A stretch of 64,000 nt of DNA from a virus (IMGVR_UViG_3300032233_002382:64001-128000); one strand, 5' to 3'. Positions 78-15,505 are shown, counted from the stretch's first letter. Notes: generated by a model from the sequence alone, not told the origin. Made by a program: numbers and translations.

Positions 78-83
78 AAACCG

Positions 84-910: not shown

Positions 911-953
911 GCAAGACTAGGTTTTCAAAGATTCAGTAGTTCTACTTTACACT

Positions 954-1039: not shown

Positions 1040-1108
1040 CAAAAAGAAGAGGGAGGGCGGCGCACCCAGCTTGGAGCCGACCAAGGCATGGGCCGGATGC
1101 GCCGACCT

Positions 1109-1142
1109 CCCACCAACTATACGAGCGGGCGCGTCGACTTCC
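1109..1142 (-). promoter_or_regulatory. Promoter-like motif copy (GGAAGTC-N12-CGTA-N5-GGTGGG) facing the tRNA cluster
   Basis: Same fixed spacing as the other copies; intergenic; oriented toward the tRNAs. Confidence 0.7.
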
Positions 1143-1153
1143 GCGCCTCTTTG

Positions 1154-1405
1154 TCAGTGATACTGATCTGGGGTGTTCGGGACCATATGACCCGCAAGAG
1201 CCGCAGAAGAAATACCCTTTGCGATCGCGTTGATCATATGCGGATCTTCGTCGCCCAACTTCCAAGTCTTTGCATAATCATAAAGAGCAGCAACAACAGC
1301 TCCAGCCTCTTCGGCGGAGAGGCTCGAAAGAATTTCCTGAGCTCGGGTCTTCTCTACATTGGCCTGATGATCGTGCTTATGGTGGCTGTGCATTATTACC
1401 TCCAA
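1154..1405 (-). CDS. Hypothetical protein
   Basis: 83-aa ORF in a co-oriented run; GGAGG precedes an internal Met. Confidence 0.55.
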   Translation of the reverse strand: MEVIMHSHHKHDHQANVEKTRAQEILSSLSAEEAGAVVAALYDYAKTWKLGDEDPHMINAIAKGISSAALAGHMVPNTPDQYH

Positions 1406-1424
1406 TATTATATTACATTTAAGG

Positions 1425-1610
1425 TTACGGGATCTCGGGGACGAAGACCCAAGCTTTAACGTACGTTCCGCCGGTCACTTCCACGAACGAATCTCGTTGC
1501 CAGTCTGCACTCTTATTGAGCTCGTCCACTTCCACAAAGTCTTCGATCTTGTTTTTGCGAATGATATCCTGGGCCTTCGAGATCATCTTCTCTGCGGTCT
1601 CAATGTCCAT
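1425..1610 (-). CDS. Hypothetical protein
   Basis: 61-aa ORF with AGGA-like RBS, tightly packed. Confidence 0.6.
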   Translation of the reverse strand: MDIETAEKMISKAQDIIRKNKIEDFVEVDELNKSADWQRDSFVEVTGGTYVKAWVFVPEIP

Positions 1611-1618
1611 GATCCATC

Positions 1619-1900
1619 CTAATTAATGAAAAGTCTCGCCTTAGCAGATTCTTTCTTATATCTCTCAACATTCTCTACTAGGTGTCGCCAAACCACGTAG
1701 CTCTCGCCGATCTCGTGCTTTAGTGCTAACGCCATCATTGCAGCAATTTCCGCATTCTCTTCGCTCATGATGGTCGTATTCTCAGTAATTTCAACTGAAT
1801 CGCGATTTTTAACGCACCCGACGATCTTCTTACCGTTCTGAAGCGCGATCGTTACGATCTCATCATTTCCTTCATTTGTAACATTTAAATCGGCTAACAT
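1619..1900 (-). CDS. Hypothetical protein
   Basis: 93-aa ORF with AGGAGG RBS. Confidence 0.7.
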   Translation of the reverse strand: MLADLNVTNEGNDEIVTIALQNGKKIVGCVKNRDSVEITENTTIMSEENAEIAAMMALALKHEIGESYVVWRHLVENVERYKKESAKARLFIN

Positions 1901-1945
1901 GAGATCCTCCTACCTACAATGTAACCCAGCTGAACGAACGGTCAA

Positions 1946-2398
1946 TTATGCGGACATCATGTCATTCACGATCCCGACGCCGCAGTTAGGGTCAATTTCC
2001 CCTTCCTTCAACGCCTCATTAATCGTCTGTTCCTCTTGAACGTGCACAGCCTTTAAACAACGCTTGCATTTGAAAATATAAGGCTCGCCGTTGAACAGCT
2101 TCTCTCGATGCATCTTCCAGTCATGCTCCTGGATATCACCGGAAGTCGGATTATACCGGCGGAGCATTTCCTTCTGAACGTCTACTCCTTCGGCCGCAAG
2201 AGCCTGGTCGATCATAGCAGCGAAGGGATCTTGAGGTTTCGGGATCTCTTCCGGATTCGGCGCAGACGGAGTATCGAACTCATCTTCAGGATCCTCTGGA
2301 AGCGGGGCTGCACCGTTCGGAGCCGAAAAATCTCGTACTGGCTCTTCCTTCTTTTCTTCGATACCTAGTGCTTTATCGAGCTGGTCAAGAAATGACAT
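1946..2398 (-). CDS. Hypothetical protein with CxxC and C-terminal tag (...IVNDMMSA)
   Basis: GGAGG RBS; upstream promoter-like motif; acidic low-complexity N-terminus; CKRC. Confidence 0.75.
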   Translation of the reverse strand: MSFLDQLDKALGIEEKKEEPVRDFSAPNGAAPLPEDPEDEFDTPSAPNPEEIPKPQDPFAAMIDQALAAEGVDVQKEMLRRYNPTSGDIQEHDWKMHREKLFNGEPYIFKCKRCLKAVHVQEEQTINEALKEGEIDPNCGVGIVNDMMSA

Positions 2399-2423
2399 TT
2401 AGCCTCCGCAGACGGACGCGCCG

Positions 2424-2457
2424 CCCAGACGAGCGACGGGCGGCGCGTCCGGTTTCC
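2424..2457 (-). promoter_or_regulatory. Promoter-like motif variant (GGAAACC-N12-CGTC-N5-TCTGGG)
   Basis: Conserved spacing; embedded in a GC hairpin just upstream of 1946..2398. Confidence 0.55.
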
Positions 2458-2471
2458 GATTTACTTCATAA

Positions 2472-3107
2472 TTACTCTTCCATGACCATTCCGGCGAGTA
2501 CCATCCCAAAACCATCCTTAACGTCCTGGTCCGTCAGCTCAGGCTTATTCAGGAGCTCCTTCTGGATTTTCTTCCAGAGACGCTCTCCGCCCCAAGTATT
2601 CGCCTTCGCCCACCTCTGGTGTTCCTCAGCAAGTTTTTCGATCGAATCAATGTCTCCAAGGAAGGTGTGCGGGGTCGGCTTTACGATAGTGCGTCCGCCA
2701 TAAGCCTGAGGATTCTTGAGCTGGAACTGATAGTGGTTTTCTTCGGACTGGTTCTTTAGGTCGATTTCCTCTCGGAGGCGATTGATTCGAATCGCCACCA
2801 TCTTAGCAAGAGTCTTCTGTGTGACTTTGCCCTTGATCTTAGGCTGGGCATTTTCGATGAGGGGCCTTACTTCGTGTATTGGTTTACGGAAATAGGCAAG
2901 CGCTTGCGGAATCTTCACGAAAGTCAAGTAAAAATCTGACTCAATGGCGCCGTCGGCGTCAGCTTCCTTCCAAGTCCGGATGATAACGTCCGAATCGCCA
3001 GTCACTCGGACCTGATCCGAACTTGCCTTAATGTCAGCTCGTGCGCCTTGGTCACACTTAGCGATCGCCAGGGCATCCAACTGCGGATCGTGGTAGATTG
3101 GCATCAA
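2472..3107 (-). CDS. Hypothetical protein with C-terminal tag (...LAGMVMEE)
   Basis: GGAGG RBS; motif upstream; 211 aa. Confidence 0.75.
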   Translation of the reverse strand: MMPIYHDPQLDALAIAKCDQGARADIKASSDQVRVTGDSDVIIRTWKEADADGAIESDFYLTFVKIPQALAYFRKPIHEVRPLIENAQPKIKGKVTQKTLAKMVAIRINRLREEIDLKNQSEENHYQFQLKNPQAYGGRTIVKPTPHTFLGDIDSIEKLAEEHQRWAKANTWGGERLWKKIQKELLNKPELTDQDVKDGFGMVLAGMVMEE

Positions 3108-3127
3108 GCCTCCGTGCGCGGGAATCG

Positions 3128-3161
3128 CGCACCAACAAAACGGACAAGGCGCCCGACTTCC
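3128..3161 (-). promoter_or_regulatory. Promoter-like motif copy (GGAAGTC-N12-CGTT-N5-GGTGCG)
   Basis: Conserved spacing; intergenic; followed by a small hairpin and RBS. Confidence 0.65.
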
Positions 3162-3169
3162 GATATGCT

Positions 3170-3505
3170 TTAGGCAGAACTCACGACGTAAACTGACTCT
3201 TCCATGTAAGACACGTTATTGAGGATGTTTTCCTGGGCATTACTTACTTTGTGCTTAACCGCTTCAATGAGAGCGCATCCAATTGCCATTGAGAGACTCT
3301 CGAATGCACCGAGGTCTTCGTGGTCCATCTCCCATCCTGTGTCGTCATCATAGTACCCGTTGATTTGCGAGACCACCCATTTCTCGTCCACACGATCAAT
3401 GTCGAGGCCGTCGACTTCAAGGTGGTTAGCGTCAACGACCTTGATCTCGGAATTCGGAAATCGCTTCGTGAAAACGTCGATCGCTTCGGTTTCATCAGTG
3501 TTCAT
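3170..3505 (-). CDS. Hypothetical protein
   Basis: ORF 3170..3799; AGGAG before Met at 3505 (MNTDETE); the upstream part overlaps motif copies, so the start was shortened. Confidence 0.65.
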   Translation of the reverse strand: MNTDETEAIDVFTKRFPNSEIKVVDANHLEVDGLDIDRVDEKWVVSQINGYYDDDTGWEMDHEDLGAFESLSMAIGCALIEAVKHKVSNAQENILNNVSYMEESVYVVSSA

Positions 3506-3525
3506 TGGCATCTCCTGGTAAGTCG

Positions 3526-3559
3526 ACCACATTATCAACGAGGGAAGCGGCCGATTTCC
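3526..3559 (-). promoter_or_regulatory. Promoter-like motif variant (GGAAATC-N12-CGTT-N5-TGTGGT), half of a divergent set
   Basis: Conserved spacing; faces 3170..3505. Confidence 0.55.
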
Positions 3560-3580
3560 GACATTCTTCAAAGTAAATAC

Positions 3581-3678
3581 GGAAATCGGAGAGGTCGTCG
3601 CGTCTCTTTGGTGGATCAACCAAATCTCTAATCTAAAGAGCGCTGGAAGTGCGGCGCTGTTGCCGTCCTGTTGCCGGA
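3581..3678 (+). promoter_or_regulatory. Two tandem motif variants (GGAAATC-N13-CGTC at 3581; GGAAGTG-N12-CGTC at 3645)
   Basis: Both face 3689..4315, divergent from the copy at 3526..3559. Confidence 0.5.
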
Positions 3679-3688
3679 GGTGCCACAT

Positions 3689-4315
3689 ATGGGGAAGTCG
3701 AGTTTTGAGAAGATTACTGACGCGCTTTACGAAACGGGCGAGTTCAAGTCGCTCATGATTGAGATAAAGGAACGAATCCAGTCGACCAAGATTACGCATT
3801 ATGCCGGTGCGTGCAATTCATATGACCCGAAGGCTACGCTGATGGTTCATATGGAGACCGAGTACTGCGGCAAGAAGAATGAGGCTGCCAGCAACGTCGG
3901 TAACATGAAGACGAATCCGTTCTGGACGATCTCCCGTGATCTATACCTGCCAGACTCATTCAAGGCGATTTTTAACGCGAATTTCGGTGTACTGAAGCCG
4001 AACTCGACAAAGAAATATCGCGTCCCGACATACAACGTGAAGCGAGACAAGGCGTACGAACACTTTGCATCCAATGCAAGGGGCAAAATTGCGGTTGAAT
4101 TCGACACGATGATTAAGGATAAGTCGAGTCAGATTCGAAACCAGGCACTTGAGTTCGACACGACTCCCATGGCGGATCAGATTAAGCAGGACACTCGAGA
4201 TCGGTTCACGATCGACTCGATTAAGGAGACTCTACTCCGCTTCAAGGACGCCAGGCCTGAGATCTTGAAGGCTGCCATGGATGAGTTCGTGTGTCATGCT
4301 ATCATGGAAAACTAG
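3689..4315 (+). CDS. Hypothetical protein with C-terminal tag (...VCHAIMEN)
   Basis: GGAGG before ATG 3689; 208 aa. Confidence 0.75.
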   Translation: MGKSSFEKITDALYETGEFKSLMIEIKERIQSTKITHYAGACNSYDPKATLMVHMETEYCGKKNEAASNVGNMKTNPFWTISRDLYLPDSFKAIFNANFGVLKPNSTKKYRVPTYNVKRDKAYEHFASNARGKIAVEFDTMIKDKSSQIRNQALEFDTTPMADQIKQDTRDRFTIDSIKETLLRFKDARPEILKAAMDEFVCHAIMEN

Positions 4316-4397
4316 TTCGGCAAGGAGTGGCTTACCCGCAATAGGGCGGATAATCCACTGTAAGTTGATAGGACTCCCATCCCACGCAAAGAGCGCC

Positions 4398-4431
4398 GGA
4401 AGTCGAGGCGGCGGCGCGTCGGTTGGGTGGG
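4398..4431 (+). promoter_or_regulatory. Promoter-like motif copy (GGAAGTC-N12-CGTC-N5-GGTGGG)
   Basis: Exact consensus; upstream of the AAA ATPase. Confidence 0.7.
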
Positions 4432-4482
4432 CGGCGCGGTGGGTGGTCCACGGCGGTCCGACCCCTTGAGGAGCGAGTAATC

Positions 4483-5583
4483 ATGCTGACTGGCATCGTT
4501 GAGATCCCGAACGACACGTACATGGACGTCCTGCGATTCAATATCCGCACGGGCGGCAATATGCTCGCCTTCGGCCAGGCCGGTATCGGCAAGACCGAGA
4601 TGGCCCAGCAGGCGGCGGTTAATGAGGGATTCGGGGTCTGCTACCTGAACCTCTCCGTCCTCGAGGCCCCCGATCTTCTTGGCCTCCCCCTCATCACCGA
4701 CGACAAGAGCGTGGATTACGCCCGACCGCGCTTCCTCCCGATCGAGGGGAAGGTCGACAAGCCGGTGGTCCTGCTCGTGGATGAGCTGGATAAGGCCAAG
4801 CCCGAGCTTCAGAATCCCCTCCTCGAGCTGTTCCAGAGCCACTCGCTCAACGGCACCAAGCTGGCGATCCAGGCCATCATCGCCACGGGTAACCTCCCCG
4901 ACGAGGGTGCCCACTCGCAGCCGGTCTCCCATGCCCTCACGAACCGGTGCAAGGTCTACAAGCTGGTGAGCGCCTTCGAGCCTTGGCGTCAGTGGGCGCA
5001 GGATTCGAATCTGAACGCATTCATCATCGGCTTCCTGAGCAAGAATCAGGAGTTCCTGAGCCGTCCTCCGGTCGAGGGTGACCCCACGGCTTACTGCCGA
5101 CCCTCTCCTCGCGCGTGGTCCCAGGCTGCCCGTGAGCTGGACCAGACCACCACCAAGGATACGGTCGACTTCCAGACCCTCCTCGTCGCTGGTCGGGTGG
5201 GTAGTGAGGCCGCAGCCAAGTTCCGCGTCTGGCTGGAGCACTACCGCATCCTCGAGCCCATCATCGATCGTCTGGTGGCGGAGGGTACCCTGCCGAATAT
5301 GGGGGAGATGACCATCGACCGCCAGCTGGTCTGCGCGATTGGTGCTGCAAGCGCGGTGGCCCAGGAGTGCCGCAAGGACGTGAAGGATAAGGCGAAGCAT
5401 CAGGAGGCCGTGAACAAGACGGCTAAGAATGTCTTCACCTGGCTCCAGAAGCTCCCCTCCGAGTTCCAGATTGCCGCAGTGAAGAGCACTCTGAACATGG
5501 AGATCATCACGAAGTACCAGCTGACGAAGATCCCTGAGGTCATGAACACCTACCTCAGCGTCCGGAAGGCCATGAAGGACTAG
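4483..5583 (+). CDS. MoxR-like AAA+ ATPase (AAA_5 type)
   Basis: Walker A GQAGIGKT, Walker B LLVDELDKA, IIATGN sensor, RxxPSPRAW; GAGGAG RBS; strongly GC3-biased codons. Confidence 0.85.
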   Translation: MLTGIVEIPNDTYMDVLRFNIRTGGNMLAFGQAGIGKTEMAQQAAVNEGFGVCYLNLSVLEAPDLLGLPLITDDKSVDYARPRFLPIEGKVDKPVVLLVDELDKAKPELQNPLLELFQSHSLNGTKLAIQAIIATGNLPDEGAHSQPVSHALTNRCKVYKLVSAFEPWRQWAQDSNLNAFIIGFLSKNQEFLSRPPVEGDPTAYCRPSPRAWSQAARELDQTTTKDTVDFQTLLVAGRVGSEAAAKFRVWLEHYRILEPIIDRLVAEGTLPNMGEMTIDRQLVCAIGAASAVAQECRKDVKDKAKHQEAVNKTAKNVFTWLQKLPSEFQIAAVKSTLNMEIITKYQLTKIPEVMNTYLSVRKAMKD

Positions 5584-5599
5584 ACCACCTGGTCCTTCG

Positions 5600-5634
5600 A
5601 CCCCACCCACCCCTCGACGAGGGGTGGGTGGGGT
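5600..5634 (+). terminator. Hairpin terminator
   Basis: accccacccacccctc/gaggggtgggtggggt stem followed by TTTT, directly after the ATPase stop. Confidence 0.7.
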
Positions 5635-5678
5635 TTTTCGGATATCTAACGTACCTTGGCAAGGTGAGTTGCACATAT

Positions 5679-5718
5679 GTTTAGGCCCCACCCAGGCGAT
5701 CCTGGGTGGGGCCTAAAC
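5679..5718. terminator. 18-bp perfect hairpin between convergent genes
   Basis: gtttaggccccacccagg-cgat-cctgggtggggcctaaac. Confidence 0.65.
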
Positions 5719-5734
5719 AGTTTTTCAATACTGA

Positions 5735-6052
5735 CTATTCTTCGGAACCGCCGGACTCCTCAGAACCACCAGCCTTAACACGGCTTTCCATAGTCTTAAC
5801 GAGGTTCTCGAGTGCCTTCAGTCCCTGAGGTAGTTCCTTGAAAGCGTCAACCACTTCTTTTTCCTGACCCTGGAATTTGGGTCCTAGTATTTTCAATCGG
5901 GACATCTTCTGGTCAAGAGTCTCTTCCTTACCAGCAATCTTCGAAACGAGATTCTTTAGATCCCGAATAACGAGATCTTTCGAAGGACTCTTAGAGGCCT
6001 CGATAGTTGCCGCAATTCGCTTGAGTTCTCTAGATAGGTCTGACGGATTCAT
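5735..6052 (-). CDS. Hypothetical protein with N-terminal KRIAA/KIAG leader
   Basis: 105 aa; GGGAG RBS. Confidence 0.7.
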   Translation of the reverse strand: MNPSDLSRELKRIAATIEASKSPSKDLVIRDLKNLVSKIAGKEETLDQKMSRLKILGPKFQGQEKEVVDAFKELPQGLKALENLVKTMESRVKAGGSEESGGSEE

Positions 6053-6088
6053 AGGTTTTCTCCCTGCAATACGTGGGTAATAAGTGAT

Positions 6089-6673
6089 TTAAATAGATAT
6101 GGAAAGAGCCGCCTCAAGATATTTCTTTCGATCGTTGAAATATTTGAGGTAATAAGCATGTTCCCAGACATCTAAAGTGAATAAAACTTTGGCGTTCACT
6201 AAAGACTGATTCTGGTGATTTTCGATCACATTGATCATTAACTGATTGGCGATCTGATCCTCGGCGAGACAGACCCAAGCGGACCCCTCAGCCTTAGTAC
6301 CAGCTTCAATGAATTGCTCTTTGAAAGACTCAACCGAACCGAAATCCTCGACCAGCCTTTCCTGAAGACCCTTCAAGATAGTGTTTGACGGATCGATACA
6401 ATTCCAGTATAAAGTGTGAAGAATGTGACCACTATAATTAAAAGCGAGATTTCTCTCAATTCCCTTTAGGTGAGTGAAATCCTTCTTCTCTCGAGCCTCT
6501 TGAAGTTGATCCAGGTTCTCATTCAAACCATCTACATATGATTGGTGGTGCTTGTCATGGTGTAAAGATAAAATTTGTTCGGGGATTATATGGCTTATAG
6601 ATTTGGGGTCAAATGGTAATGGCGGAAGGATATAACGGCTTTGGGCAGCAATACGAAAGTCATAGTCGATCAT
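6089..6673 (-). CDS. sod: Fe/Mn superoxide dismutase with short N-terminal extension
   Basis: YxLPPLPF start, HHDKHHQSYV, GHILHTLYW, GSAW and DVWEHAYY metal-ligand motifs; the metal cannot be assigned by eye. Confidence 0.93.
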   Translation of the reverse strand: MIDYDFRIAAQSRYILPPLPFDPKSISHIIPEQILSLHHDKHHQSYVDGLNENLDQLQEAREKKDFTHLKGIERNLAFNYSGHILHTLYWNCIDPSNTILKGLQERLVEDFGSVESFKEQFIEAGTKAEGSAWVCLAEDQIANQLMINVIENHQNQSLVNAKVLFTLDVWEHAYYLKYFNDRKKYLEAALSISI

Positions 6674-6716
6674 ATACTAATGTCCCAAAAAGAAATTAAA
6701 TACCGCAAAGCACAGC

Positions 6717-6750
6717 GGAAGTCGGCGCGTCGGCGCGTCTATTTGGTGGG
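6717..6750 (+). promoter_or_regulatory. Promoter-like motif copy
   Basis: GGAAGTC-ggcgcgtcggcg-CGTC-tattt-GGTGGG, then a gggcgg/ccgccc hairpin and GGAGG RBS. Confidence 0.7.
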
Positions 6751-6782
6751 CGGATTGGCCGCCCCCGTATCGGAGGATTGAG

Positions 6783-8267
6783 ATGGACTTTACCGCATCT
6801 ATTACGCGTCTGAGCGACCCTAAGAACGTTGCGACCAGCCCCCGACAGCTCAAGGATCTGAACGAAAAGATCTCGAGCACCATGACCCGTCTCTTCCGAC
6901 AGCCTGAGAACGGAGGCAATCCGTTCCTCTTCGCGCTCGCTGGCCCCAAGCCGCACGAGCTGGCTCGTGACGGGATCGATACCGCAGCGACCGATGGCAA
7001 GAAGTTCTACTGGAATCCGGACTGGCTCGAGCAGATGGATGCCGACCAAGTGGCGACCATCATGTCGCACGAGTCCTACCATGTCCTCTTCTTCCATTGC
7101 TCTCCGGAGCGGGCGGGTGGTCTGAACCCGCAGGTCTGGAACATCGCCGTCGACTACATCGTGAACGGGGTGATTATGGCCGATCACGAGAAGTCGGGTC
7201 GTTCGAAGAAGCAGCCTAAGTTGTTCTACGGGGCCATGGGCACCCCGATCTCGCTCCAGCAGTACATCGAGTGGATTGACGGCAAGCGTGACTCGCTTCC
7301 GGAGCCTGGGTGCTTCGCGGACGAGACGACTCACGGTCGAAGCCCTGAGTCGATCTACGACCAGATCCAGAAGGCCTTCATGAACAGCCCCCGTCGCTGC
7401 AAGGAGAATGCAGGTGGTTGCGGGGCGCTCTCCATCGACCCCAAGACCGGCATTTCGACGCTGGGTCCTGGCCCCTACGAGCCGGATTGCTGCCAGAAGT
7501 GCGGTGCCAAGCCGAACCAGGGGTTTGGGCCAGGGTCGCTCGACTCCCATCTCCCCTCCCAGCAGACCAAGGATGAGACCCTTGGAGATATGATGAGGGC
7601 GGCTGAGCAGACCCGTGCCATGGGTCGCGGGGATGTGCCAGGGGATATTGAGGCAGCCCTGGGTCGCCTCAAGAAGCCGGAGCTGTCTGCGCGGGATATC
7701 ATCCGTGCAGCCATCGCCCAGAAGCGACTGGATGCCGGTAATAACAATGATTGGAAGCGATTCCGTCGTCGTCCAGCATACATCTACGAGAAGGATGTGG
7801 AGGGTAACTACAAGCCCACCCACCGGCTCTACACGCCCAAGAAGCACGACTTCAAGCCGAAGTGGGTCGCGCTGATGGATACCTCTGGCTCGATGAGCGA
7901 TGATGATATCGCCAACGGGGTGAAGGAGCTGAAGATTGTGGCGGATATTGCCGAGGGTACTATCGTCCCCTGCGACACCCGCCCCTTCTGGGATAAGGCC
8001 ACCAAGGTCACGAAGGCCACCGATATCACGCGGACCAAGGTGGCTGGTCGTGGAGGCACCGTCTTCGAGCAGTTCTTCCGTGAGCTTCCGAAGCAGGCTT
8101 GCGGTCAGGAAGTGGACCTTGTAATCATCATCACCGACGGCGACTGTGATCAGGTTCCGGTGAATCTGATGCCCAAGGGGGCCGATACCCTGTGGATCAT
8201 CACGAACAAGCGGGAGTTTAAGCCGAATTTCGGACGGGTTTGCCAGCTCCGTCCCTCCCACGCGTAA
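6783..8267 (+). CDS. DUF2201-like putative metallopeptidase + vWA domain protein (MoxR partner)
   Basis: TAATDG..FYWNP, HESYH (HExxH), WNIAVDYIVN; C-terminal MIDAS DTSGSM, GRGGT.F, IIITDG; Cys-rich insert. Confidence 0.85.
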   Translation: MDFTASITRLSDPKNVATSPRQLKDLNEKISSTMTRLFRQPENGGNPFLFALAGPKPHELARDGIDTAATDGKKFYWNPDWLEQMDADQVATIMSHESYHVLFFHCSPERAGGLNPQVWNIAVDYIVNGVIMADHEKSGRSKKQPKLFYGAMGTPISLQQYIEWIDGKRDSLPEPGCFADETTHGRSPESIYDQIQKAFMNSPRRCKENAGGCGALSIDPKTGISTLGPGPYEPDCCQKCGAKPNQGFGPGSLDSHLPSQQTKDETLGDMMRAAEQTRAMGRGDVPGDIEAALGRLKKPELSARDIIRAAIAQKRLDAGNNNDWKRFRRRPAYIYEKDVEGNYKPTHRLYTPKKHDFKPKWVALMDTSGSMSDDDIANGVKELKIVADIAEGTIVPCDTRPFWDKATKVTKATDITRTKVAGRGGTVFEQFFRELPKQACGQEVDLVIIITDGDCDQVPVNLMPKGADTLWIITNKREFKPNFGRVCQLRPSHA

Positions 8268-8276
8268 GATAACCCT

Positions 8277-8313
8277 ATCCCACCCAGGCATCACTACGAT
8301 GCCTGGGTGGGAT
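8277..8313 (+). terminator. Hairpin terminator
   Basis: atcccacccaggcatc/gatgcctgggtgggat 16-bp stem after the vWA stop. Confidence 0.65.
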
Positions 8314-8333
8314 CTTTCGTATTTAGGTGACAC

Positions 8334-8645
8334 ATGCCGAAAGATACTAAGAAGTACACGGAAAAGGAACGGGCAGCCGCGATTCAGAAGATGTATCGGT
8401 TCTTGACGGACAAGCATCAGAACCATAGTTGGGTGTTCCGTCCAGGCAGAGACCCGATTTTCACTCGGACTAAGTCACCGCAGGATCTCTACAATCTCAT
8501 CCAGATGTTCTTCTACCATGAGCATGAGATTAAAGCACTTTCTAAGTGGGCCAATACCCACAAGCGGGCCTTTAAAGAGTTGAAGCCTGAGGACTATAAG
8601 GCAGTCCAGGATCTATTTGCCGTCGAAGCCGTTCACGAGTCTTAA
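8334..8645 (+). CDS. Hypothetical protein with C-terminal tag (...AVEAVHES)
   Basis: AGGTG RBS; 103 aa. Confidence 0.75.
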   Translation: MPKDTKKYTEKERAAAIQKMYRFLTDKHQNHSWVFRPGRDPIFTRTKSPQDLYNLIQMFFYHEHEIKALSKWANTHKRAFKELKPEDYKAVQDLFAVEAVHES

Positions 8646-8649
8646 ATAA

Positions 8650-8685
8650 CTTGAGGGCCCTGGGATTCGTTCCAGGGCCCTCAAG
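8650..8685. terminator. Hairpin between convergent genes
   Basis: cttgagggccctgg/ccagggccctcaag stem. Confidence 0.65.
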
Positions 8686-8716
8686 CGAGCGGGTAGCGAC
8701 TTCGAACTAGTTTACA

Positions 8717-9400
8717 CTAGAAGGAATAGTCTACCACCGTAAACTCTTCCGCCTCGCCAGCGCGGCAACCGCACGCGCAATCGGGCGGACAGTGGCAGGT
8801 GCCAGCTCCGCACGCCTCACAGCCGCACGAACAGGCGGGAGCGACAGCGTGCGACGGCGCATGGTCGTGCACCGTCGGCATCGACCCCTTGGACTTCTCG
8901 CCCATAATATAACGTTTGGCTTTAGCGACACGGTCTGCAGCTTCAGACAGACACTGATCTACCCACTGAGGTAGGTCGTCACAATTGTTCATGAGCTGCA
9001 TTATTTCCATGACGTCGTGCATCATGGTTACCGTGTTTGAATAAGCCATGTATGATACTGGAAAGACCCCAGGATGCTCTTCGATCACCACGTTCGGATC
9101 TAGAAGGACAGTAGGAGCCATACCAGAAGTACTGGAACGCTTCTTACCAAACCCATCAGATAATCTCTCGGCCACTTCGAGAGCCATGGCACCTGGTCCT
9201 CGATGTTTGATGTAGCTAAGCTGAGTTTTAACGTCAGTGGGCTTGTGAACCAAAACACCACCTTGCTTTTCGAATTCATCTGGCTTTACATGAAGTTCCA
9301 AAGCTCGTACATTTTTACTCTTATTTACTACTTTAACAATATCATCGATTATCTTTTTAATATTTTCATCTGCAGACATACGATAGTCATAATTAGACAT
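8717..9400 (-). CDS. Hypothetical protein with DYRMSA leader and metallothionein-like Cys-rich tail
   Basis: GGAGG before ATG 9400 (MSNYDYRMSA); tail CSCGCEACGAGTCHCPPDCACGC. Confidence 0.75.
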   Translation of the reverse strand: MSNYDYRMSADENIKKIIDDIVKVVNKSKNVRALELHVKPDEFEKQGGVLVHKPTDVKTQLSYIKHRGPGAMALEVAERLSDGFGKKRSSTSGMAPTVLLDPNVVIEEHPGVFPVSYMAYSNTVTMMHDVMEIMQLMNNCDDLPQWVDQCLSEAADRVAKAKRYIMGEKSKGSMPTVHDHAPSHAVAPACSCGCEACGAGTCHCPPDCACGCRAGEAEEFTVVDYSF

Positions 9401-9455
9401 AGTTCCTCCAGTATTACAACACTTCAATAATGGTCTATATAGGTTAAGCAGATCC

Positions 9456-9489
9456 GGAAGTCGGACGGCCCGACCGTTTCGCATATGCA
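9456..9489 (+). promoter_or_regulatory. Promoter-like motif variant (GGAAGTC-N12-CGTT, third element absent)
   Basis: First two elements at conserved spacing, upstream of 9511. Confidence 0.55.
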
Positions 9490-9510
9490 AGACTAACCAA
9501 CGGAGTCGAA

Positions 9511-10278
9511 ATGCTACTGAGTGAGATGGACGCATCTGATGCCGCCAAAGAAGTGCTCAAGTCTGAGAAAATTCATAAGCTTGGGAGCGAATCTGATCAA
9601 GAGCATGAAGAGAAGGTGGCTCAGATCCACAACGATGTCGCAAGGATTATCGAATTTATTCGGAATGCGAAGATTACTTCCACAGAAATCAAAGCAAATC
9701 GTGGTTCAAAGTATGGATCACTGATTTCGAATCAGTATCCTGGTGTCTACATCCATCAAATCATCACGCTATCTGATGGAAAGCACAAGTACTCAGTAAA
9801 TAATCCCGAATTAATCGCAAAGACTGACTATGCGGACCAGAACAAGATAGTTCCATCAAGTTTCTTCGGGATTTGGGGTGATAAAAGAGTATACCTGAGC
9901 GACCGCTCCCTGTCTCGAATGACCAAAGCCGCTCCGAATCTTGTTAATCTATATCGAAGTGCTCTTGAGATTCGTTTGGGGTTTACGCAGGAAATTGCCG
10001 AACAAGCCGCAGACAAGTATGTGAATAAGAACCAAGGGCGCGCAAAGGCTCAGATTATTAAGAAGATGGGTGGCTTCCTTGCCGAATGCAATCTCAAAGA
10101 TGAGGACCCGGAGTTCCTTCTCCAGATCATGAAGTTCATCTCTCGAGACAACTTCTGGGAGATGAAGAATTTCTTCAATTACTGTCGACGAAATCGTGGT
10201 GATATCAATTTTCTGACACCCGATGAAGTGATCCAGGCTCAAAATCTTGCTAAGGCGATTGAAATCCAGAAGTCCTAA
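9511..10278 (+). CDS. Hypothetical protein with C-terminal tag (...KAIEIQKS)
   Basis: 255-aa ORF downstream of the motif. Confidence 0.75.
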   Translation: MLLSEMDASDAAKEVLKSEKIHKLGSESDQEHEEKVAQIHNDVARIIEFIRNAKITSTEIKANRGSKYGSLISNQYPGVYIHQIITLSDGKHKYSVNNPELIAKTDYADQNKIVPSSFFGIWGDKRVYLSDRSLSRMTKAAPNLVNLYRSALEIRLGFTQEIAEQAADKYVNKNQGRAKAQIIKKMGGFLAECNLKDEDPEFLLQIMKFISRDNFWEMKNFFNYCRRNRGDINFLTPDEVIQAQNLAKAIEIQKS

Positions 10279-10286
10279 AGGGAACT

Positions 10287-10320
10287 GGAAGTCGGACGCG
10301 GCGCGCGTCTTCTTGGTGGG
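10287..10320 (+). promoter_or_regulatory. Promoter-like motif copy
   Basis: GGAAGTC-N12-CGTC-ttctt-GGTGGG, then a gggcg/cgccc hairpin and GGAGG. Confidence 0.7.
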
Positions 10321-10349
10321 CGACTTGGCGCCCGATATGGAGGCATAAC

Positions 10350-10676
10350 ATGGCTCGCACGAATGAATTCACGAAGCTGGCTGAGGTTGTCGAGGTGATG
10401 GAGGTTCCAAGTGGGTGTTTTAACAAGATGCGAATCTGCATTACTGGTCATCTGGGTAAGCCTCGACATGAGATCGTCCGTCTTATTGAGCAGGGTGGTG
10501 GTGTTTTTCATGACACTGTGAAGTACGACACCACCCACCTTCTGACGAACGCTGATTGGACGACGATCAATGGGAAGACTTCGTCCAAATACGACAAGGC
10601 CAAGAAGTATGGATGCAAGTTCATCAGCGAGGCTGATTTCTTCTCGATGATGACATCGGCTGAGGCAGCCGCATGA
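10350..10676 (+). CDS. Stand-alone BRCT-domain protein (LigA C-terminal-like)
   Basis: ICITG, R.EI..LIE..GG.F...V...TTHLL, SSKY.KAKKYG..FISE..F pattern. Confidence 0.8.
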   Translation: MARTNEFTKLAEVVEVMEVPSGCFNKMRICITGHLGKPRHEIVRLIEQGGGVFHDTVKYDTTHLLTNADWTTINGKTSSKYDKAKKYGCKFISEADFFSMMTSAEAAA

Positions 10677-10963
10677 ACTTCTACATTGGCGTGATCTCTG
10701 AAGCCGACAACTTCGATTTAAACATCAAGTACCTTGATACGATTTATACGTCGAGGGAAGCGAACATCGCCAAGAAATACTACGACTCCCTGAATGAAAA
10801 AGATAAGAAGTGGTTTGAACGGTTATCTTTCGACAGTATGATGTGGTGGAGTCGGGCGTTCGTTGATGGAATTAAGAAGACCCCGAAGGAATTGAAAAAG
10901 GAACGGGGTGACTTGATGAGAGCAAAGAGGGAGGCCAAACGTGCCGCACAAATTCGCAGTTGA
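10673..10963 (+). CDS. Hypothetical protein
   Basis: ATGA overlap with the previous gene; 96 aa. Confidence 0.7.
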   Translation: MNFYIGVISEADNFDLNIKYLDTIYTSREANIAKKYYDSLNEKDKKWFERLSFDSMMWWSRAFVDGIKKTPKELKKERGDLMRAKREAKRAAQIRS

Positions 10964-11645
10964 TAATGGCTCGACCGACACTGAAATCGAACAAGCGATG
11001 GACCATATCCGGCATACGATCGAACTAGGCCGTCAAGCCGAATTAGCATTAATCAATATTGAGAGACAGGGATATCACAACGGCGACATCACGGTAGTTG
11101 TTGATCCGAATACTAAGACCTATCACGGTGCTCTTAGGAATCTTCGCCTAGCCAAGTACATTGAGCCGACTCGTGATAAGGCTCCATCTTTTGCCGACCT
11201 AAGTGTGACTTGCGGGAGAATGATGGAAGATTCTCACGGCGGTCATTATTTCAAGAGCTGCGAAGTGACCTTAAGCGGAACTCGAGTGAATCAGATTGAG
11301 GGAAAGCTCGTGAACGAGCCATTTTCCATCATCATGGGGAATCTGAGGCTTAAGAAGACCGGACTTTCGATCGAGCTGAAGCATGAACAGTACTACAACC
11401 GATACGACGTAGCTCAGGTATACAAGAAGCCGACGGGATCTTCCATGTCGTCTTATAGAGAGATTGCCAAGTGCGTTGCGGATCATGTGGTGTCGATCGC
11501 AAATAGTTATCATGATCCAGAATTGCAGATTACGCACGATCTTCGGATGAAAGCCCGAGAGTGGTTGGTTTCGGAAGGTGTCATTCAGCGTCTCTCCACG
11601 AGTCTTTTCGAGCAAGCCAAGATTGTTGAGGTGATGAATGCGTAG
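10941..11645 (+). CDS. Hypothetical protein with C-terminal tag (...KIVEVMNA); start uncertain
   Basis: 234-aa ORF in operon. Confidence 0.7.
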   Translation: MPHKFAVDNGSTDTEIEQAMDHIRHTIELGRQAELALINIERQGYHNGDITVVVDPNTKTYHGALRNLRLAKYIEPTRDKAPSFADLSVTCGRMMEDSHGGHYFKSCEVTLSGTRVNQIEGKLVNEPFSIIMGNLRLKKTGLSIELKHEQYYNRYDVAQVYKKPTGSSMSSYREIAKCVADHVVSIANSYHDPELQITHDLRMKAREWLVSEGVIQRLSTSLFEQAKIVEVMNA

Positions 11646-12144
11646 CAGTACTACCCTTCATTATCATAACCTGCCTCAAGCCATCAGTGTAATCAAATCG
11701 GCAAAAGTATCCTCAGCCGGTTCTACCCTAAAGGGTAATTCGATTCAAGTAAGGGTTAAGTTTACGAATACGATGGGTCAGCCGTCGATCGGATATTTTT
11801 CGATCAATTCGAGTCGTATTTCAGACTACAAATTCTACGACCCTGGGTTTATGCGAAAATGCTTTCGAATGTCTGCAATCGGGTCGGCTGCTCGAAACCA
11901 GTATGATGACTGGGTTAAGGGAAATCCGGTCGAATTGCGTAGACTTCAGAAAGAAATCCTCGATGCGGCTAAGAAAGAATACTCAGAGGGTGAAGCCACT
12001 AGGCGCAAAAACGAAGCAGTTGTTGCTAAGTGCCGAAAGGCGCTTTCCGAGTGGATGATCCATTCCTTCAAGCACGGGATTGAGCAGGAGGAGATTCTAG
12101 ATATCATGAGGGAGTCGCTCATCAAGTCTACGATGTCCGAGTGA
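11638..12144 (+). CDS. Hypothetical protein with C-terminal tag (...LIKSTMSE)
   Basis: Overlapping start; 168 aa. Confidence 0.7.
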   Translation: MRSSTTLHYHNLPQAISVIKSAKVSSAGSTLKGNSIQVRVKFTNTMGQPSIGYFSINSSRISDYKFYDPGFMRKCFRMSAIGSAARNQYDDWVKGNPVELRRLQKEILDAAKKEYSEGEATRRKNEAVVAKCRKALSEWMIHSFKHGIEQEEILDIMRESLIKSTMSE

Positions 12145-12152
12145 TGAAATGC

Positions 12153-12186
12153 GGAAGTCGGATGCGCCGTGCGTCTCATATGTGGG
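12153..12186 (+). promoter_or_regulatory. Promoter-like motif copy (GGAAGTC-N12-CGTC-N5-TGTGGG)
   Basis: Conserved spacing; GGAGG downstream. Confidence 0.7.
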
Positions 12187-12217
12187 CGCACGGCGCGCTC
12201 ATTTGTGGAGGTGAATT

Positions 12218-12838
12218 ATGGCGAATCCGGTTCTTCTTGCGAAGTTTACAAATCCTGGTCCGGTTGCGAATGCGTTCATTAAGGAATGGAACGAGTATTT
12301 TAAGGGTTCTAAGTACGTCGGGCATGGTGCTAGTAAGACCGGTACCACCGCTTATGCGAAATTCTCCATTCCGGCTGTGAATAAGTTCAAGCTTTGTAAG
12401 GTTTCGATCCGAGTCCGCTATCATAGCAAACCGAGCGGAGTGTCTATCACTTCAGATGTGTGGGAGGCCTGGGCCAAACTCCGTGTCGAGAAGATCACGG
12501 ACGGGGCGAGAAGTCGGAACATGTTCTACGATTGGACACGCAATTACACGGGAGAGTCCTCTCTATCTAAGCTGTTCAATGAGACCGGTGCCAATGGACA
12601 CCAAGATCTATATGAAGCATTCTTTACGGCAGTCGGATTCATGCCGGAGTTAGATAAGGCTGCAAAGGATGTCGCCTCATCATCAACCGTCGAAGAGAAA
12701 AAGAAGATTCACGAAGTCAAGAGCGCGCTTTTTGACATTCGTGCACCTCTGCGTACTCTCCTCCGACACGGCATTGAAACTGAACAGTTGCATGAGATGA
12801 TCAATCACGAAATCGTGGATCTAATCACCGATGGATGA
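12218..12838 (+). CDS. Hypothetical protein with C-terminal tag (...IVDLITDG)
   Basis: GGAGGTG RBS; 206 aa. Confidence 0.75.
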   Translation: MANPVLLAKFTNPGPVANAFIKEWNEYFKGSKYVGHGASKTGTTAYAKFSIPAVNKFKLCKVSIRVRYHSKPSGVSITSDVWEAWAKLRVEKITDGARSRNMFYDWTRNYTGESSLSKLFNETGANGHQDLYEAFFTAVGFMPELDKAAKDVASSSTVEEKKKIHEVKSALFDIRAPLRTLLRHGIETEQLHEMINHEIVDLITDG

Positions 12839-13184
12839 AGCCAAGATTAAGGAAGTCATCACCGAGTTCGAAGGTTACCCAAAAGAATATAAGGATCAGA
12901 TGCTACAGAGGTGGTGGGAAATTAGCCCATATCTGGACAATAAGTCCGACATGCTAGCCAAGACTTTATCTTGGATTGCGTACGCCTTTAACCATAAAGA
13001 AGAGTATTGGTGGTCTAGGGAAGCAATTTGGTTTCTGCACAAGAATGATCCTGAAGTATCCGTGTATGCTCTGGTTGATCAGTATGGGTATGATTGGAAG
13101 AACACAGTAATGCCGCAATTAAAGCCAGTGTTTGAAGTGATTGCTCACCCCAGCTTACTTGTCGGTGGAATTCACGGTTCCTGA
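12831..13184 (+). CDS. Hypothetical protein
   Basis: Overlapping start; 117 aa; aromatic-rich. Confidence 0.7.
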   Translation: MDEAKIKEVITEFEGYPKEYKDQMLQRWWEISPYLDNKSDMLAKTLSWIAYAFNHKEEYWWSREAIWFLHKNDPEVSVYALVDQYGYDWKNTVMPQLKPVFEVIAHPSLLVGGIHGS

Positions 13185-13193
13185 AGCAAATCC

Positions 13194-13227
13194 GGAAGTC
13201 GCGTGCTGCGCGCGTTCTCTGGGTGGG
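13194..13227 (+). promoter_or_regulatory. Promoter-like motif copy (GGAAGTC-N12-CGTT-N5-GGTGGG)
   Basis: Conserved spacing; gggcgg/ccgccc hairpin and GGGAG follow. Confidence 0.7.
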
Positions 13228-13260
13228 CGGGCGGTCCGCCCCCATTATGGGAGAGATTAG

Positions 13261-14064
13261 ATGGATCTCATGTCGATGATCGATGGCGTTCTGGCGAAGA
13301 ATGGTGTTCCGGTTGCGGTCGTTCCCGAGCCGGTCTTGGAGAAGAAGGAGGATGTCGTCGTGAACAATGCACACGTCTGCGATGAGATCGTGGCGGCACC
13401 GAAGATGGTGGAGATTCCGCCGGACCAGGTCTATATGTACAAGGGCATGCGCCACAAGCTGGTGTTCGAGGGAGTCTGCTCCCACTGCGCGCACTGTGGG
13501 CAGCCTTTGACCGACTCAGAGTCCGTTGAGCGCGGTCTCGGTCCGATCTGCTCGAAGAAGGGCTACCTCGAGGAGGTCGTTCCCGTCGACGACACCGAGG
13601 CTCTCCTAGCGCTGGCTGAGTATCCGCAGCTGGTCGAGTACCTCACGGCGAAGTACAAGCCGCAGGGGAATCGAGCTCTCTGCAACGGTCTCGTCAGGAC
13701 CGCTTCCTTGAACCGGAGGACCCCCGTCCACGCCGCTTGTACTGACGCGGTGGAGGCATTGGGCTACAAGCGGCTGGCTTCCGCCCTGCGCGAGTCCCTC
13801 TCCGTTGTGGAGATTTCGGACTCGAAGACGAAGCCCGACTGCTACGGCCTTTGGGTGAAGAAGTCCGACTTCTCGTGGCAGTTTTGGAACGAGTTGAAGG
13901 CTCTGAACGGGGTTTATATGACGCGGTACCCCGCACGCGAGACCGTCGTCCCGAAGGTGCATCGCCGGAAGCTGGCTGAACTCCTCTTGAAGTACTACGA
14001 GGGGCTTTGCGTGAAGACCCAGAACGGGGCTCACAAGATTTCCCCGGCATGGTTGGGGAAGTAG
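13261..14064 (+). CDS. Zn-binding phage protein, DUF6011-like motif
   Basis: CAHCGQPLTDSESVERGLGPIC resembles CxxCGxxLTxxxSxxxGxGPxC; GC3-rich. Confidence 0.7.
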   Translation: MDLMSMIDGVLAKNGVPVAVVPEPVLEKKEDVVVNNAHVCDEIVAAPKMVEIPPDQVYMYKGMRHKLVFEGVCSHCAHCGQPLTDSESVERGLGPICSKKGYLEEVVPVDDTEALLALAEYPQLVEYLTAKYKPQGNRALCNGLVRTASLNRRTPVHAACTDAVEALGYKRLASALRESLSVVEISDSKTKPDCYGLWVKKSDFSWQFWNELKALNGVYMTRYPARETVVPKVHRRKLAELLLKYYEGLCVKTQNGAHKISPAWLGK

Positions 14065-14365
14065 TGGGGGCAGTTTGAGCAATCCCCGATACGGGTTCGG
14101 CGGAAGGGAGACTCCTCTTCCGCCGAACCTGGGGCTTAGGGATTAAATTCTCAAAGGCTTTCGGGTCGGGTGTAGATAACTCGGTGCCCTTGACCCTCAG
14201 TAAGATCGCCTTATGAGGATTGTGGGGAACGTTAAAGACTTTGTTGAGATATCTGTGAGCCAAGTCCAATAGTTTTGAACCGCTAGTGTGTTCTCCGGCG
14301 GCAAGCTCGGCAGGAAACTCATGAACCTTTCCGTTGAATTCGAATCGAATGAAGAATTTGCGCAT
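13694..14365 (-). CDS. Possible small gene whose frame runs antisense into 13261..14064
   Basis: GGGAG RBS and a globular-looking first ~80 aa; the remainder is low-complexity antisense overlap. Confidence 0.35.
   Translation of the reverse strand: MRKFFIRFEFNGKVHEFPAELAAGEHTSGSKLLDLAHRYLNKVFNVPHNPHKAILLRVKGTELSTPDPKAFENLIPKPQVRRKRSLPSAEPVSGIAQTAPTTSPTMPGKSCEPRSGSSRKAPRSTSRGVQPASGDAPSGRRSRVRGTASYKPRSEPSTRSKTATRSRTSSPKGRSSRASSSSPKSPQRRGTRAGRKPAACSPMPPPRQYKRRGRGSSGSRKRS
14093..14130. terminator. Hairpin after 13261..14064
   Basis: gggttcggcggaag/cttccgccgaacct stem. Confidence 0.6.
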
Positions 14366-14449
14366 TGATCTCCCGTTCAGGTTCTACCGTAACAATACGG
14401 CTTAACAATGGTTCCCATTTACATTCTAAGATCTCGAAAGAGGGTCAAT

Positions 14450-14950
14450 ATGGCAGAGGATGGGTACTGGGCAAAGCAATTCCGTGATGGGGCACCCGAG
14501 GCAGTTGCGAAGTCATGGTTGAGCTCTGGCAATCATCAGAATCGAGTCTTGCACCACATCGGTCAAATAGGGATCGATAGACTAGTAGAAAAGACCCAGG
14601 GATCTTGGAAGCGTGAAAATCTGGCTAAAGCAGTGATCGAAGACATGAAGTTGGTACCAGAGATCATCAGGGATATTCAAAGCAGTAGCAATTTTGTCAT
14701 GGGGCCTATTTTATCGGGCCTGTCGGTTAAAGATCAGATCAGCAAGAATGATATTCAAGCCAAGATGTGGCTTGACAAGAGCCCAGACCATGTGATTTTT
14801 TATGGTCCATATAGCGAGACGTTAGAGACATTTCTTATTTCTGAAGTCGGTAAGGTCATTTCGAATTCTGAATGGTTTAAAAAGAACATCAAGTCGATTC
14901 GAAGTGCAGCAGCCAAGATCAATGCAGTTAAGAAGGTAATGAACCAGTAA
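14450..14950 (+). CDS. Hypothetical protein with C-terminal tag (...AVKKVMNQ)
   Basis: GAGGG before ATG 14450. Confidence 0.7.
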   Translation: MAEDGYWAKQFRDGAPEAVAKSWLSSGNHQNRVLHHIGQIGIDRLVEKTQGSWKRENLAKAVIEDMKLVPEIIRDIQSSSNFVMGPILSGLSVKDQISKNDIQAKMWLDKSPDHVIFYGPYSETLETFLISEVGKVISNSEWFKKNIKSIRSAAAKINAVKKVMNQ

Positions 14951-15018
14951 TCTATTGTATCCATTTTGGGACAGGTACCCCAAATTCATAAACCAAGTAC
15001 CTACCATGGAGAGTTAGT

Positions 15019-15369
15019 ATGTTTAATCGTGTTCCGGTCCAGAACGACATCATGAACAACACTGTAGGTGAGACGTCTGTCGAAGGACGAATTATTCCGG
15101 TCGGTCGTGGCGGTGAAGCAATCGTGTTCGAAATTCCGATGGGGTTCTTCAAGATTGTAGCAATCGCCAACATTCCTGAGGAAGGCGCTGAGAAGGCGCC
15201 AGTCTACCTCAAGCTCAAGGTAGGCGATTTTGCGTATCAGCGGGCTCAGAATGCACAGGCTCGTGCGAATAGCCGCCGTGCCGCTCGACAGGCTCAGTAC
15301 GCAAACAATGGACATGACTCGGACGTAGATGATGGTGATTATGAAGGTGATGATTCCCATCCCGCGTAA
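15019..15369 (+). CDS. Hypothetical protein, acidic tail
   Basis: GGAG RBS; 116 aa. Confidence 0.7.
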   Translation: MFNRVPVQNDIMNNTVGETSVEGRIIPVGRGGEAIVFEIPMGFFKIVAIANIPEEGAEKAPVYLKLKVGDFAYQRAQNAQARANSRRAARQAQYANNGHDSDVDDGDYEGDDSHPA

Positions 15370-15377
15370 AGCGGCGC

Positions 15378-15411
15378 GGAAGTCTCGCGGTCGGCGCGTC
15401 CGATAGGTGGG
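15378..15411 (+). promoter_or_regulatory. Promoter-like motif copy
   Basis: GGAAGTC-tcgcggtcggcg-CGTC-cgata-GGTGGG. Confidence 0.7.
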
Positions 15412-15505
15412 CACGGGGCGCGAGTCGCGGTGGCGCGGGGATGATCTGGTGCATTGTGCACTGGACCTCCCCCGCAGCGAGCTCCCTCCCCGAATGGAGG
15501 CCCAA

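Follow-up and report, generated by a model that had tools for sequence, protein, structure and literature searches.

A predicted class of about 55 bipartite promoters in an uncultured huge freshwater phage and a candidate phage-encoded sigma factor

The locus and its predicted promoter copies

The stretch examined here, referred to as the window, comprises 64,000 nucleotides and corresponds to bases 64001-128000 of the 307,777-bp IMG/VR viral contig IMGVR_UViG_3300032233_002382 (46% G+C), so that a position in the window equals the genome position minus 64000. Its left part carries genes and a tRNA pair that are preceded by copies of a promoter-like motif, in which the word GGAARTC is followed at a rigid distance by CGT and then by a GTGG-containing element; this motif class and the protein that may read it are the subject of this report. 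An earlier note on the window had listed about 13 copies and proposed that they represent an early promoter class. All 13 listed positions proved to be real, while one further copy (801, minus strand) had been overlooked. The 14 predicted copies are given below in window coordinates, with their scores and, where given, the distance from CGT to the start codon.

766-801, minus strand: 12-nt spacer, the overlooked copy, for a 113-aa open reading frame (ORF) at 399-740 (minus); 34.1 bits; CGT to ATG 42 nt
1107-1142, minus strand: facing tRNA-Leu (954-1039) and tRNA-Ser (821-910), both identified by ARAGORN; 42.3 bits
2422-2457, minus strand: GGAAACC variant, for ORF 1946-2398 (minus); 46.4 bits; CGT to ATG 40 nt
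3126-3161, minus strand: for ORF 2472-3104 (minus); 42.1 bits; CGT to ATG 38 nt
3524-3559, minus strand: for ORF 3170-3505 (minus), back-to-back with the copy at 3581; 33.6 bits; CGT to ATG 35 nt
3581-3617, plus strand: 13-nt spacer, the upstream one of two tandem copies for ORF 3689-4315 (plus); 34.4 bits in a variable-spacer two-block scan
3645-3680, plus strand: weaker copy (GGAAGTG) directly before ORF 3689-4315 (plus); 25.8 bits; CGT to ATG 25 nt
4398-4433, plus strand: for a MoxR-like AAA ATPase gene, 4483-5583 (plus; PHROG 1297 ATPase, E 4e-44); 47.5 bits
6717-6752, plus strand: for a DUF2201/VWA gene, 6783-8267 (plus; Pfam PF13203, PF09967); 51.6 bits
9456-9491, plus strand: lacking the GGTGGG part, for ORF 9511-10278 (plus); 36.4 bits; CGT to ATG 36 nt
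10287-10322, plus strand: for an operon starting at 10350 (plus); 52.6 bits; CGT to ATG 44 nt
12153-12188, plus strand: for ORF 12218-12838 (plus); 46.4 bits; CGT to ATG 46 nt
13194-13229, plus strand: for a DUF6011 gene, 13261-14064 (plus); 49.8 bits; CGT to ATG 48 nt
15378-15413, plus strand: the last copy of the genome, for ORF 15506-16177 (plus); 39.5 bits

When the window was scanned with the full pattern, allowing up to two mismatches, 10 matches were obtained against an expectation of 0.02 from shuffled sequence. A weight matrix built from the copies and refined on the genome retrieved 53 sites with a 12-nt spacer, at 19-54 bits, across the entire contig, and the five Markov-shuffled genomes that served as background returned no site, with a top score of 7-10 bits. 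Two further copies, found by the two-block scan at genome positions 28378 and 67581 (both plus strand), possess a 13-nt spacer, the latter being the window copy at 3581. Several claims of the earlier note were borne out by these scans: the genome-wide search it had called for yielded 53 + 2 copies as opposed to none in shuffled genomes, the rigid 12-nt spacing applies to 53 of the 55 copies, the 13-nt spacer of the copy at 3581 is real, and the copy at 1142 does face a tRNA cluster. All 55 copies are located between 13.9 and 79.4 kb of the genome, 14 of them in the window and the remaining 41 upstream of it (genome 13.9-64 kb); as the earlier note had stated, none occurs beyond 16 kb of the window, and the 228 kb of genome that follow the last copy are free of them.

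Architecture and conservation of the motif class

The consensus, (t)AAAG-N6-c-GGAARTCGG-n-CGC-n-CCGC-n-CGTY-N5-GGTGGGCG, is longer than first reported, at approximately 45 bp, with high information at GGAARTC, CGT and GTGGG and an A-rich element upstream. The invariance of CGT among the 53 sites is a consequence of the choice of seed set; the same triplet was, however, recovered in the variant motifs of five related phages. Of the 55 copies, 53 have 19 nt from the first G to CGT and the remaining two have 20 nt; in the relatives the value is 19-20 nt.

Promoters of extracytoplasmic function (ECF, group 4) sigma factors include those of Bacillus subtilis SigW (TGAAAC-N16-CGTATA), Escherichia coli sigma-E (GGAACTT-N16-TCAAA) and alphaproteobacterial EcfG (GGAAC-N16-CGTT), the canonical spacing being approximately 16-17 bp from the -35 pentamer to CGT, or about 22 nt from the first G to CGT. 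The phage motif resembles these in being bipartite, the -35 word containing GGAA/AA and the -10 word containing CGT (it reads CGTC in the phage studied here and CGTAT in relatives), and in the absence of a TATAAT-like, A/T-rich -10 element; TTGACA is likewise absent, and the candidate reader, a protein designated g386 that is described below, possesses just sigma-2 and sigma-4 domains. It differs from them in that GGAA is followed by (G/A)TC, giving a -35 word GGAARTC rather than GGAAC, without the AAC core (GACAGTC, AAATTC and CAAGCC occur in relatives), in that the first G lies 19 nt (20 in some relatives) rather than about 22 nt from CGT, so that the 16-17 bp interval is not found, in the conservation of the start region GTGG(G/A) and the semi-conserved, GC-rich spacer, and in the presence of 55 copies in a single phage genome. 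Both the ECF-like GGAA and CGT elements and the shortened spacer (approximately 3 bp under that of canonical ECF promoters) had been recognised in the earlier note.

All 53 copies with a 12-nt spacer aim at the next gene or at the tRNA pair, and 49 of them are fully intergenic, the other four overlapping only low-scoring ORF calls on the opposite strand. A start codon is situated 21-66 nt past CGT in 39 of the 53 copies. Between window positions 3505 and 3689 one leftward and two rightward copies are found together, the starts of those at 3559 (minus) and 3581 (plus) being 22 nt apart. Elsewhere in the genome, tandem arrays of three or four copies spaced 60-120 nt apart precede single genes (genome 13914-14192 and 21285-21512, both plus), and these may be stacked promoters or may specify short untranslated transcripts. 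Two long, perfect GC-rich hairpins between convergent genes (window 5678-5719, 19 pairs; 8277-8313, 16 pairs) are probably bidirectional terminators bounding motif-driven units.

The shortest distances from CGT to ATG are 21-26 nt, with the ribosome-binding site located within GGTGGAGG, and in approximately ten copies the ATG follows 4-8 nt past GGTGGAGGT, so that the transcript would have to begin at or just before GTGG. Judging from this geometry and from general knowledge of ECF promoters, transcription is predicted to start 10-13 nt past the C of CGT, in keeping with the earlier proposal of a start near GGTGGG. In many copies GGGCGG pairs with a downstream CCGCCC to form a hairpin at the predicted extreme 5' end of the transcript; the succession of GC hairpin and ribosome-binding site described in the earlier note applies to about half of the copies, whereas in others GGTGGAGGT is itself the ribosome-binding site. 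The mean minimum free energy of the 5' hairpin is -14.0 kcal/mol compared to -7.3 kcal/mol for other upstream windows; since the mean z against shuffles is just -0.38, a small excess, much of this difference reflects GC content. A hairpin lying inside the motif itself was considered and rejected: T21 is invariant and shows no covariation with position 9, and mutual information is highest for pairs of adjacent columns in the flanks. No base-pair covariation was found within the motif. Placement, orientation, the divergent back-to-back pairs and conservation in relatives support the promoter class first suggested in the earlier note, and the motif is thus predicted to constitute a class of about 55 promoters serving a 65-kb block of small, poorly conserved genes and the tRNA pair.

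The studied phage (G000) was compared with relatives labelled G001-G009, of which G001-G005, other huge uncultured phages of 183-436 kb, encode a terminase 72-60% identical to its own. The exact motif gave five single matches in viral_contigs, without further copies by matrix scoring, while a slightly looser pattern gave at least 120 single matches in GC-rich DNA of metagenome_contigs, none of those listed being on a contig with several strong copies; the latter look like chance. The G000 pattern was not enriched in LR745208.1, in the Acidobacteria jumbo phage Tunturi_5 (terminase 29% identical) or in G001-G005, and a search of the literature, covering both the motif and ECF promoters of jumbo phages, returned nothing for this clade. 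Orthologues of motif-driven genes (the MoxR-like ATPase, the DUF2201/VWA protein and others) nevertheless carry variant motifs of the same build: the MoxR-like ATPase gene of G001, G002 and G005 is preceded by the variant proper to each phage, as are the DUF2201/VWA orthologues of G001 and G002. The variants are as follows.

G001: GTGACAGTC-N13-CGTCT, start region GGTGGG; 26 copies, 131-163 kb
G002: G(C/T)AAATTC-N12-CGTAT, start region GTGGAGGTGA; 59 copies, across the terminal repeat
G003: G(G/C)AAGTC-N13-CGTA, start region GTGGAGG; approximately 37 copies
G004: GCAAGCC-N13-CGTATCG, start region GTGGAGG; 43 copies
G005: GGAAGCC-N13-CGTATC, start region other than the GTGG type; two or more convincing copies

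The 26-59 copies found in each of G001-G004 are restricted to the syntenic block; the count for G003 derives from a one-step matrix scan, iterative refinement having drifted onto a coding repeat. Across the relatives CGT and its distance to the start are kept, as is GTGG in G001-G004, while each phage has a -35-like word of its own, a pattern that fits a co-evolving, phage-encoded specificity factor.

CheckV estimates the completeness of the contig at 72%. The genes at its two ends, g386 (306-307 kb) and g002, g003 and a PurZ-like gene (0.6-5 kb), are direct neighbours in G001 and G002, and the ends that adjoin there correspond to genome 307427-307777 and 1-627; the contig is, as far as gene order can tell, probably a near-complete, permuted genome despite the CheckV figure. 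Near-identical fragments of this phage are present in freshwater, river and lagoon metagenomes, while none of the public runs listed as containing it is an RNA data set. When contigs were compared with window positions 1-16000, strains of 85-95% identity and mosaic gene content were observed in four freshwater, river and lagoon runs, and one 13-kb metagenome contig skips or replaces several genes of the early block; this mosaic structure suggests fast gene turnover between conserved promoters. The PurZ-like gene (genome 3879-5054, minus strand, outside the window) encodes a 391-aa adenylosuccinate-synthetase-like product whose phage matches belong to PurZ-carrying phages (28-35% identity; annotated as 2-aminooxy adenylosuccinate or diaminopurine synthetase), with homologues of 66-68% identity in G001 and G002. 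An adenylosuccinate lyase gene is located in the window (17477-18775, plus strand), and together these findings point to the possibility that the genome of this huge phage contains 2-aminoadenine.

The candidate reader and rival explanations

The gene for g386 (genome 306140-307426, minus strand, outside the window) specifies a protein of 428 aa, for which the AlphaFold model has a mean predicted local distance difference test score (pLDDT) of 88; a separate model of residues 1-330 has a pLDDT of 86. Residues 355-428 superpose on sigma-4 domains (Z 10-11, root-mean-square deviation 1.2-2 Å), the wider set of matches including SigL, CnrH, SigW, SigD and sigma-E (Z 9-11, 1.2-2.5 Å), and sigma-4 is also recognised by Pfam PF04545 (E 1.8e-7). 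An exhaustive comparison of the 1-330 model with 48,161 chains put sigma-2 domains at nearly every one of the 20 best ranks, those of ECF factors leading (Z 8.6-6.7, 74-91 residues aligned, model positions 13 to 325 against chain positions of approximately 3 to 95). The sigma-2 fold is built from residues ~13-70 and a long helix, 293-325, and is split by an insert of approximately 220 residues with conserved Cys pairs, at what we take to be the place where ECF sigma factors carry their -10 specificity loop. Sigma-3 and sigma-1.1 are absent, there being just a disordered linker (328-356, pLDDT <50) between the 2.3/2.4-like helix and sigma-4, and the NCBIfam sigma70-ECF model aligns to residues 294-423. 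A profile search against PDB sequences recovered sigma-4 alone.

The g386 family numbers over 180 proteins, every one of them encoded on a phage-like contig; one homologue comes from a metagenome-assembled genome labelled Methylobacter, which gives no more than a hint as to the host. Each of the phages G000-G005 has both g386 and the motif class. In G006-G009 (terminase 39-48% identical) no g386 was detected at E 1e-5, nor was the generic motif found. The sigma-4 helix and the 2.4-like helix of g386 vary between phages, with G000 and G001 (CGTC) grouping against G002-G004 (CGTAT). From these data we consider it rather more probable than improbable that g386 reads the motif by way of the host core polymerase. 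The search for sigma genes advised in the earlier note indeed uncovered several sigma-like genes in the genome, and the "unusual sigma factor" it envisaged would correspond to a phage ECF-like sigma factor with a predicted split sigma-2 domain.

A number of observations weigh against this assignment. The TIGR02937 score of g386 is 34.6 bits and does not reach the cut-off of 42.9 bits, Pfam Sigma70_r2 is not detected in the protein, and the structural match to sigma-2 is of middling Z (at most 8.6). The link between sigma factor and promoter consists of correlations, namely co-occurrence and variability within one clade, and is confounded by phylogeny, while the apparent absence of the motif from G006-G009 is weakened by the fact that the generic pattern also overlooked G001. 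In addition, the -35 to -10 distance falls some 3 bp short of that of known ECF promoters, and no motif copy precedes g386 itself, whereas ECF sigma genes are usually autoregulated.

It is conceivable that the motif is not a promoter but a repressor or activator operator, or an RNA element of the 5' untranslated region that governs, for instance, processing or stability, in which case the real promoters would have to be sought elsewhere. The length of the conserved stretch (~45 bp including the semi-conserved, GC-rich spacer) and the frequent hairpin in its 3' part would suit such a role; on the other hand, the divergent and tandem copies fill entire intergenic regions, as at window 3505-3689, and leave no room for other promoters, covariation is lacking inside the motif, two blocks of high information flank a spacer of variable sequence at fixed spacing, CGT is constant among phages whose -35 blocks differ, and sigma-70-like sites are not enriched upstream of motif-driven genes. 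Indeed, sigma-70-like matches in the motif block occur at chance level and mostly within genes, and the genome-wide number (69) compares with 68-84 in shuffles. We regard a non-promoter function as very unlikely. That a host ECF sigma factor reads the motif, for example an envelope-stress factor turned on by infection, with the phage sigma factors serving other promoter classes, appears quite unlikely. The GGAA and CGT elements are ECF-like, and a pre-existing factor would be the simplest source if the motif genes were the very first to be expressed, but variation of the -35 word among related phages of otherwise constant architecture is better explained by a co-evolving phage factor, the spacing is 2-3 bp under that generally known for ECF promoters, every phage with the class encodes an ECF-like sigma factor with a conserved host-type promoter, and the matches listed for the exact pattern among viral and metagenome contigs were single ones, as chance would predict.

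Among the other phage proteins, g240 (219 aa) has an ECF-like region 2 and possibly a small sigma-4, g361 (273 aa; genome 283187-284008, minus strand) has two tandem ECF-type sigma-4 domains without sigma-2 and could be a late activator or one half of a split sigma factor, and g058 (234 aa; genome 33492-34196, plus strand) is group-3-like, with regions 1.2, 2 and 4 and a housekeeping-type RERIRQ helix. Two-subunit sigma factors are known in Bacillus and phage SPO1, and it may be asked whether g240 alone, g240 and g361 as a two-part factor, or g058 reads the promoters: g240 matches sigma70-ECF and Sigma70_r2, and a weak alignment along small ECF sigma factors is obtained with its Atlas model, both sigma-4 domains of g361 are good, and g058 lies within the motif block as part of an operon that is preceded by the motif copy at genome 32209. 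We think this unlikely, given that g240-like and g361-like genes persist in three and four, respectively, of the four phages G006-G009, where g386 and the generic motif were not found, that both recognition helices of g361 are 100% conserved across five phages in spite of their differing -35 words, that g240 shows hardly any variation in its 2.4-like helix even though the -10 word differs (CGTC versus CGTAT), and that the RERIRQ helix of g058, whose counterparts in relatives are just 26-29% identical, suits TTGACA-like -35 elements. The phage RNA polymerase that the earlier note had offered as an alternative, be it single-subunit or phiKZ-like and missed by our searches, fared worst and is extremely improbable. 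The conserved GG-rich start region of the motif recalls T7-type promoters, and the CheckV completeness of 72% leaves room for a missing gene; yet the contig has no PF00940 match indicative of a T7-like enzyme, a result shared by the control genomes and so uninformative by itself, and no PF00562 match indicative of a beta subunit, the latter having been positive in 14 of 14 controls, with the proviso that very divergent subunits could escape Pfam. Moreover, the adjacency of the contig-end genes in G001 and G002 indicates that little is missing, and the bipartite layout, the sequence-variable spacer and the several sigma-like genes argue for a sigma-dependent enzyme. Since polymerase genes were not detected and several sigma-like proteins are present, the phage is predicted to use the host core polymerase.

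Returning to g386 as the favoured reader, a bolder proposal is that its Cys-rich insert of ~220 aa forms a third DNA-reading module that contacts GTGG(G/A)CG and permits the short spacer, amounting to a new architecture with a tripartite promoter, maybe tuned to 2-aminoadenine DNA, given that the phage and its relatives carry a PurZ-like gene and that conserved A is absent from the non-template -10 and start regions. This we hold to be unlikely.

A proposed transcription cascade and its significance

In six phages the g386 gene is preceded by a sigma-70-like promoter, TTGAC(T/A)-N17/18-TAnnnT, followed by a conserved leader; the -35 element is TTGCGC in G005 and the -10 element TAGACC in G001, and a TG is found just upstream in four or five of the phages. 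In G000 this promoter (TTGACT-N18-TATAAT, genome 307500-307530, minus strand), again with a conserved leader, is the only good intergenic sigma-70-type match that aims at a gene. Approximately 14 kb separate the g386 gene from the motif block. That g386 is the reader, where transcripts start and when they are made are inferences, and the following order of events may be proposed. The host sigma factor would transcribe g386 from its conserved sigma-70-type promoter with extended -10; host core RNA polymerase carrying g386 would then act on the roughly 55 motif promoters, with sigma-4 binding the duplex word GGAARTC, sigma-2 reading CGTY as an ECF-type -10 element and transcription starting ~10-13 nt later, inside GTGG(G/A). 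The first feature of the mRNA would be either the GC hairpin (GGGCGG...CCGCCC) or else the ribosome-binding site (GGAGG). One of these promoters would drive the g058 operon, and g058 may represent a third tier of the cascade. Since a conserved sigma-70-type promoter precedes the gene of the candidate sigma factor, the motif promoters probably belong to a delayed-early phase, and the "early" of the earlier note may denote a second tier.

A late promoter class could not be defined. Between 145 and 307 kb of the genome, for example at 214590, 241100 and 263096 (all minus strand), and also at window 64588 (plus strand; genome 128588), a conserved (A)TTCGTATT(T/C)G comes after a strong terminator-like hairpin and is itself followed by a ribosome-binding site and ATG. 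Words resembling AGTGTAAA show a modest enrichment upstream of some genes. The hairpin-tail words are either a late, -10-only promoter class sharing CGTAT with the early -10 word of the relatives or mere terminator tails, and the hairpins followed by (A)TTCGTATTTG may be just such tails.

T4 gp55 is a phage-encoded sigma factor. A phage-encoded sigma cascade involving gp28 and gp33/34 is described for SPO1 (PMC13401047), and the sigma factor of phiEco32/7-11 serves TAATGTATA-type promoters (PMC4331800). As in these phages, the host primary sigma factor is proposed here to transcribe the first genes, including the one for the phage's sigma factor, which then redirects the host core enzyme to a phage-specific promoter class. 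In contrast to them, where the phage sigma factor serves middle or late genes, its predicted target here is a small accessory-gene block, and g386 possesses an insert of ~220 aa inside sigma-2; the promoters of phiEco32 and T4 are single -10-type elements, while a strong -35 word is found here. For a phage to bring its own sigma factor is a well-known strategy.

The analysis provides a predicted transcription map, with about 55 promoters and their putative starts, for a clade of uncultured huge freshwater phages, and proposes a three-step cascade leading from host sigma factor to phage sigma factor to accessory-gene block. The splitting of sigma-2 at the specificity loop in combination with a spacer shorter by ~3 bp would, if confirmed, be of structural interest. 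Given that the candidate sigma-promoter pairs differ among six related phages that share one architecture, they form a natural series for studying the co-evolution of -35 words and sigma-4 domains, and could serve as a source of orthogonal sigma/promoter parts, such as have already been obtained from bacterial ECF sigma factors.

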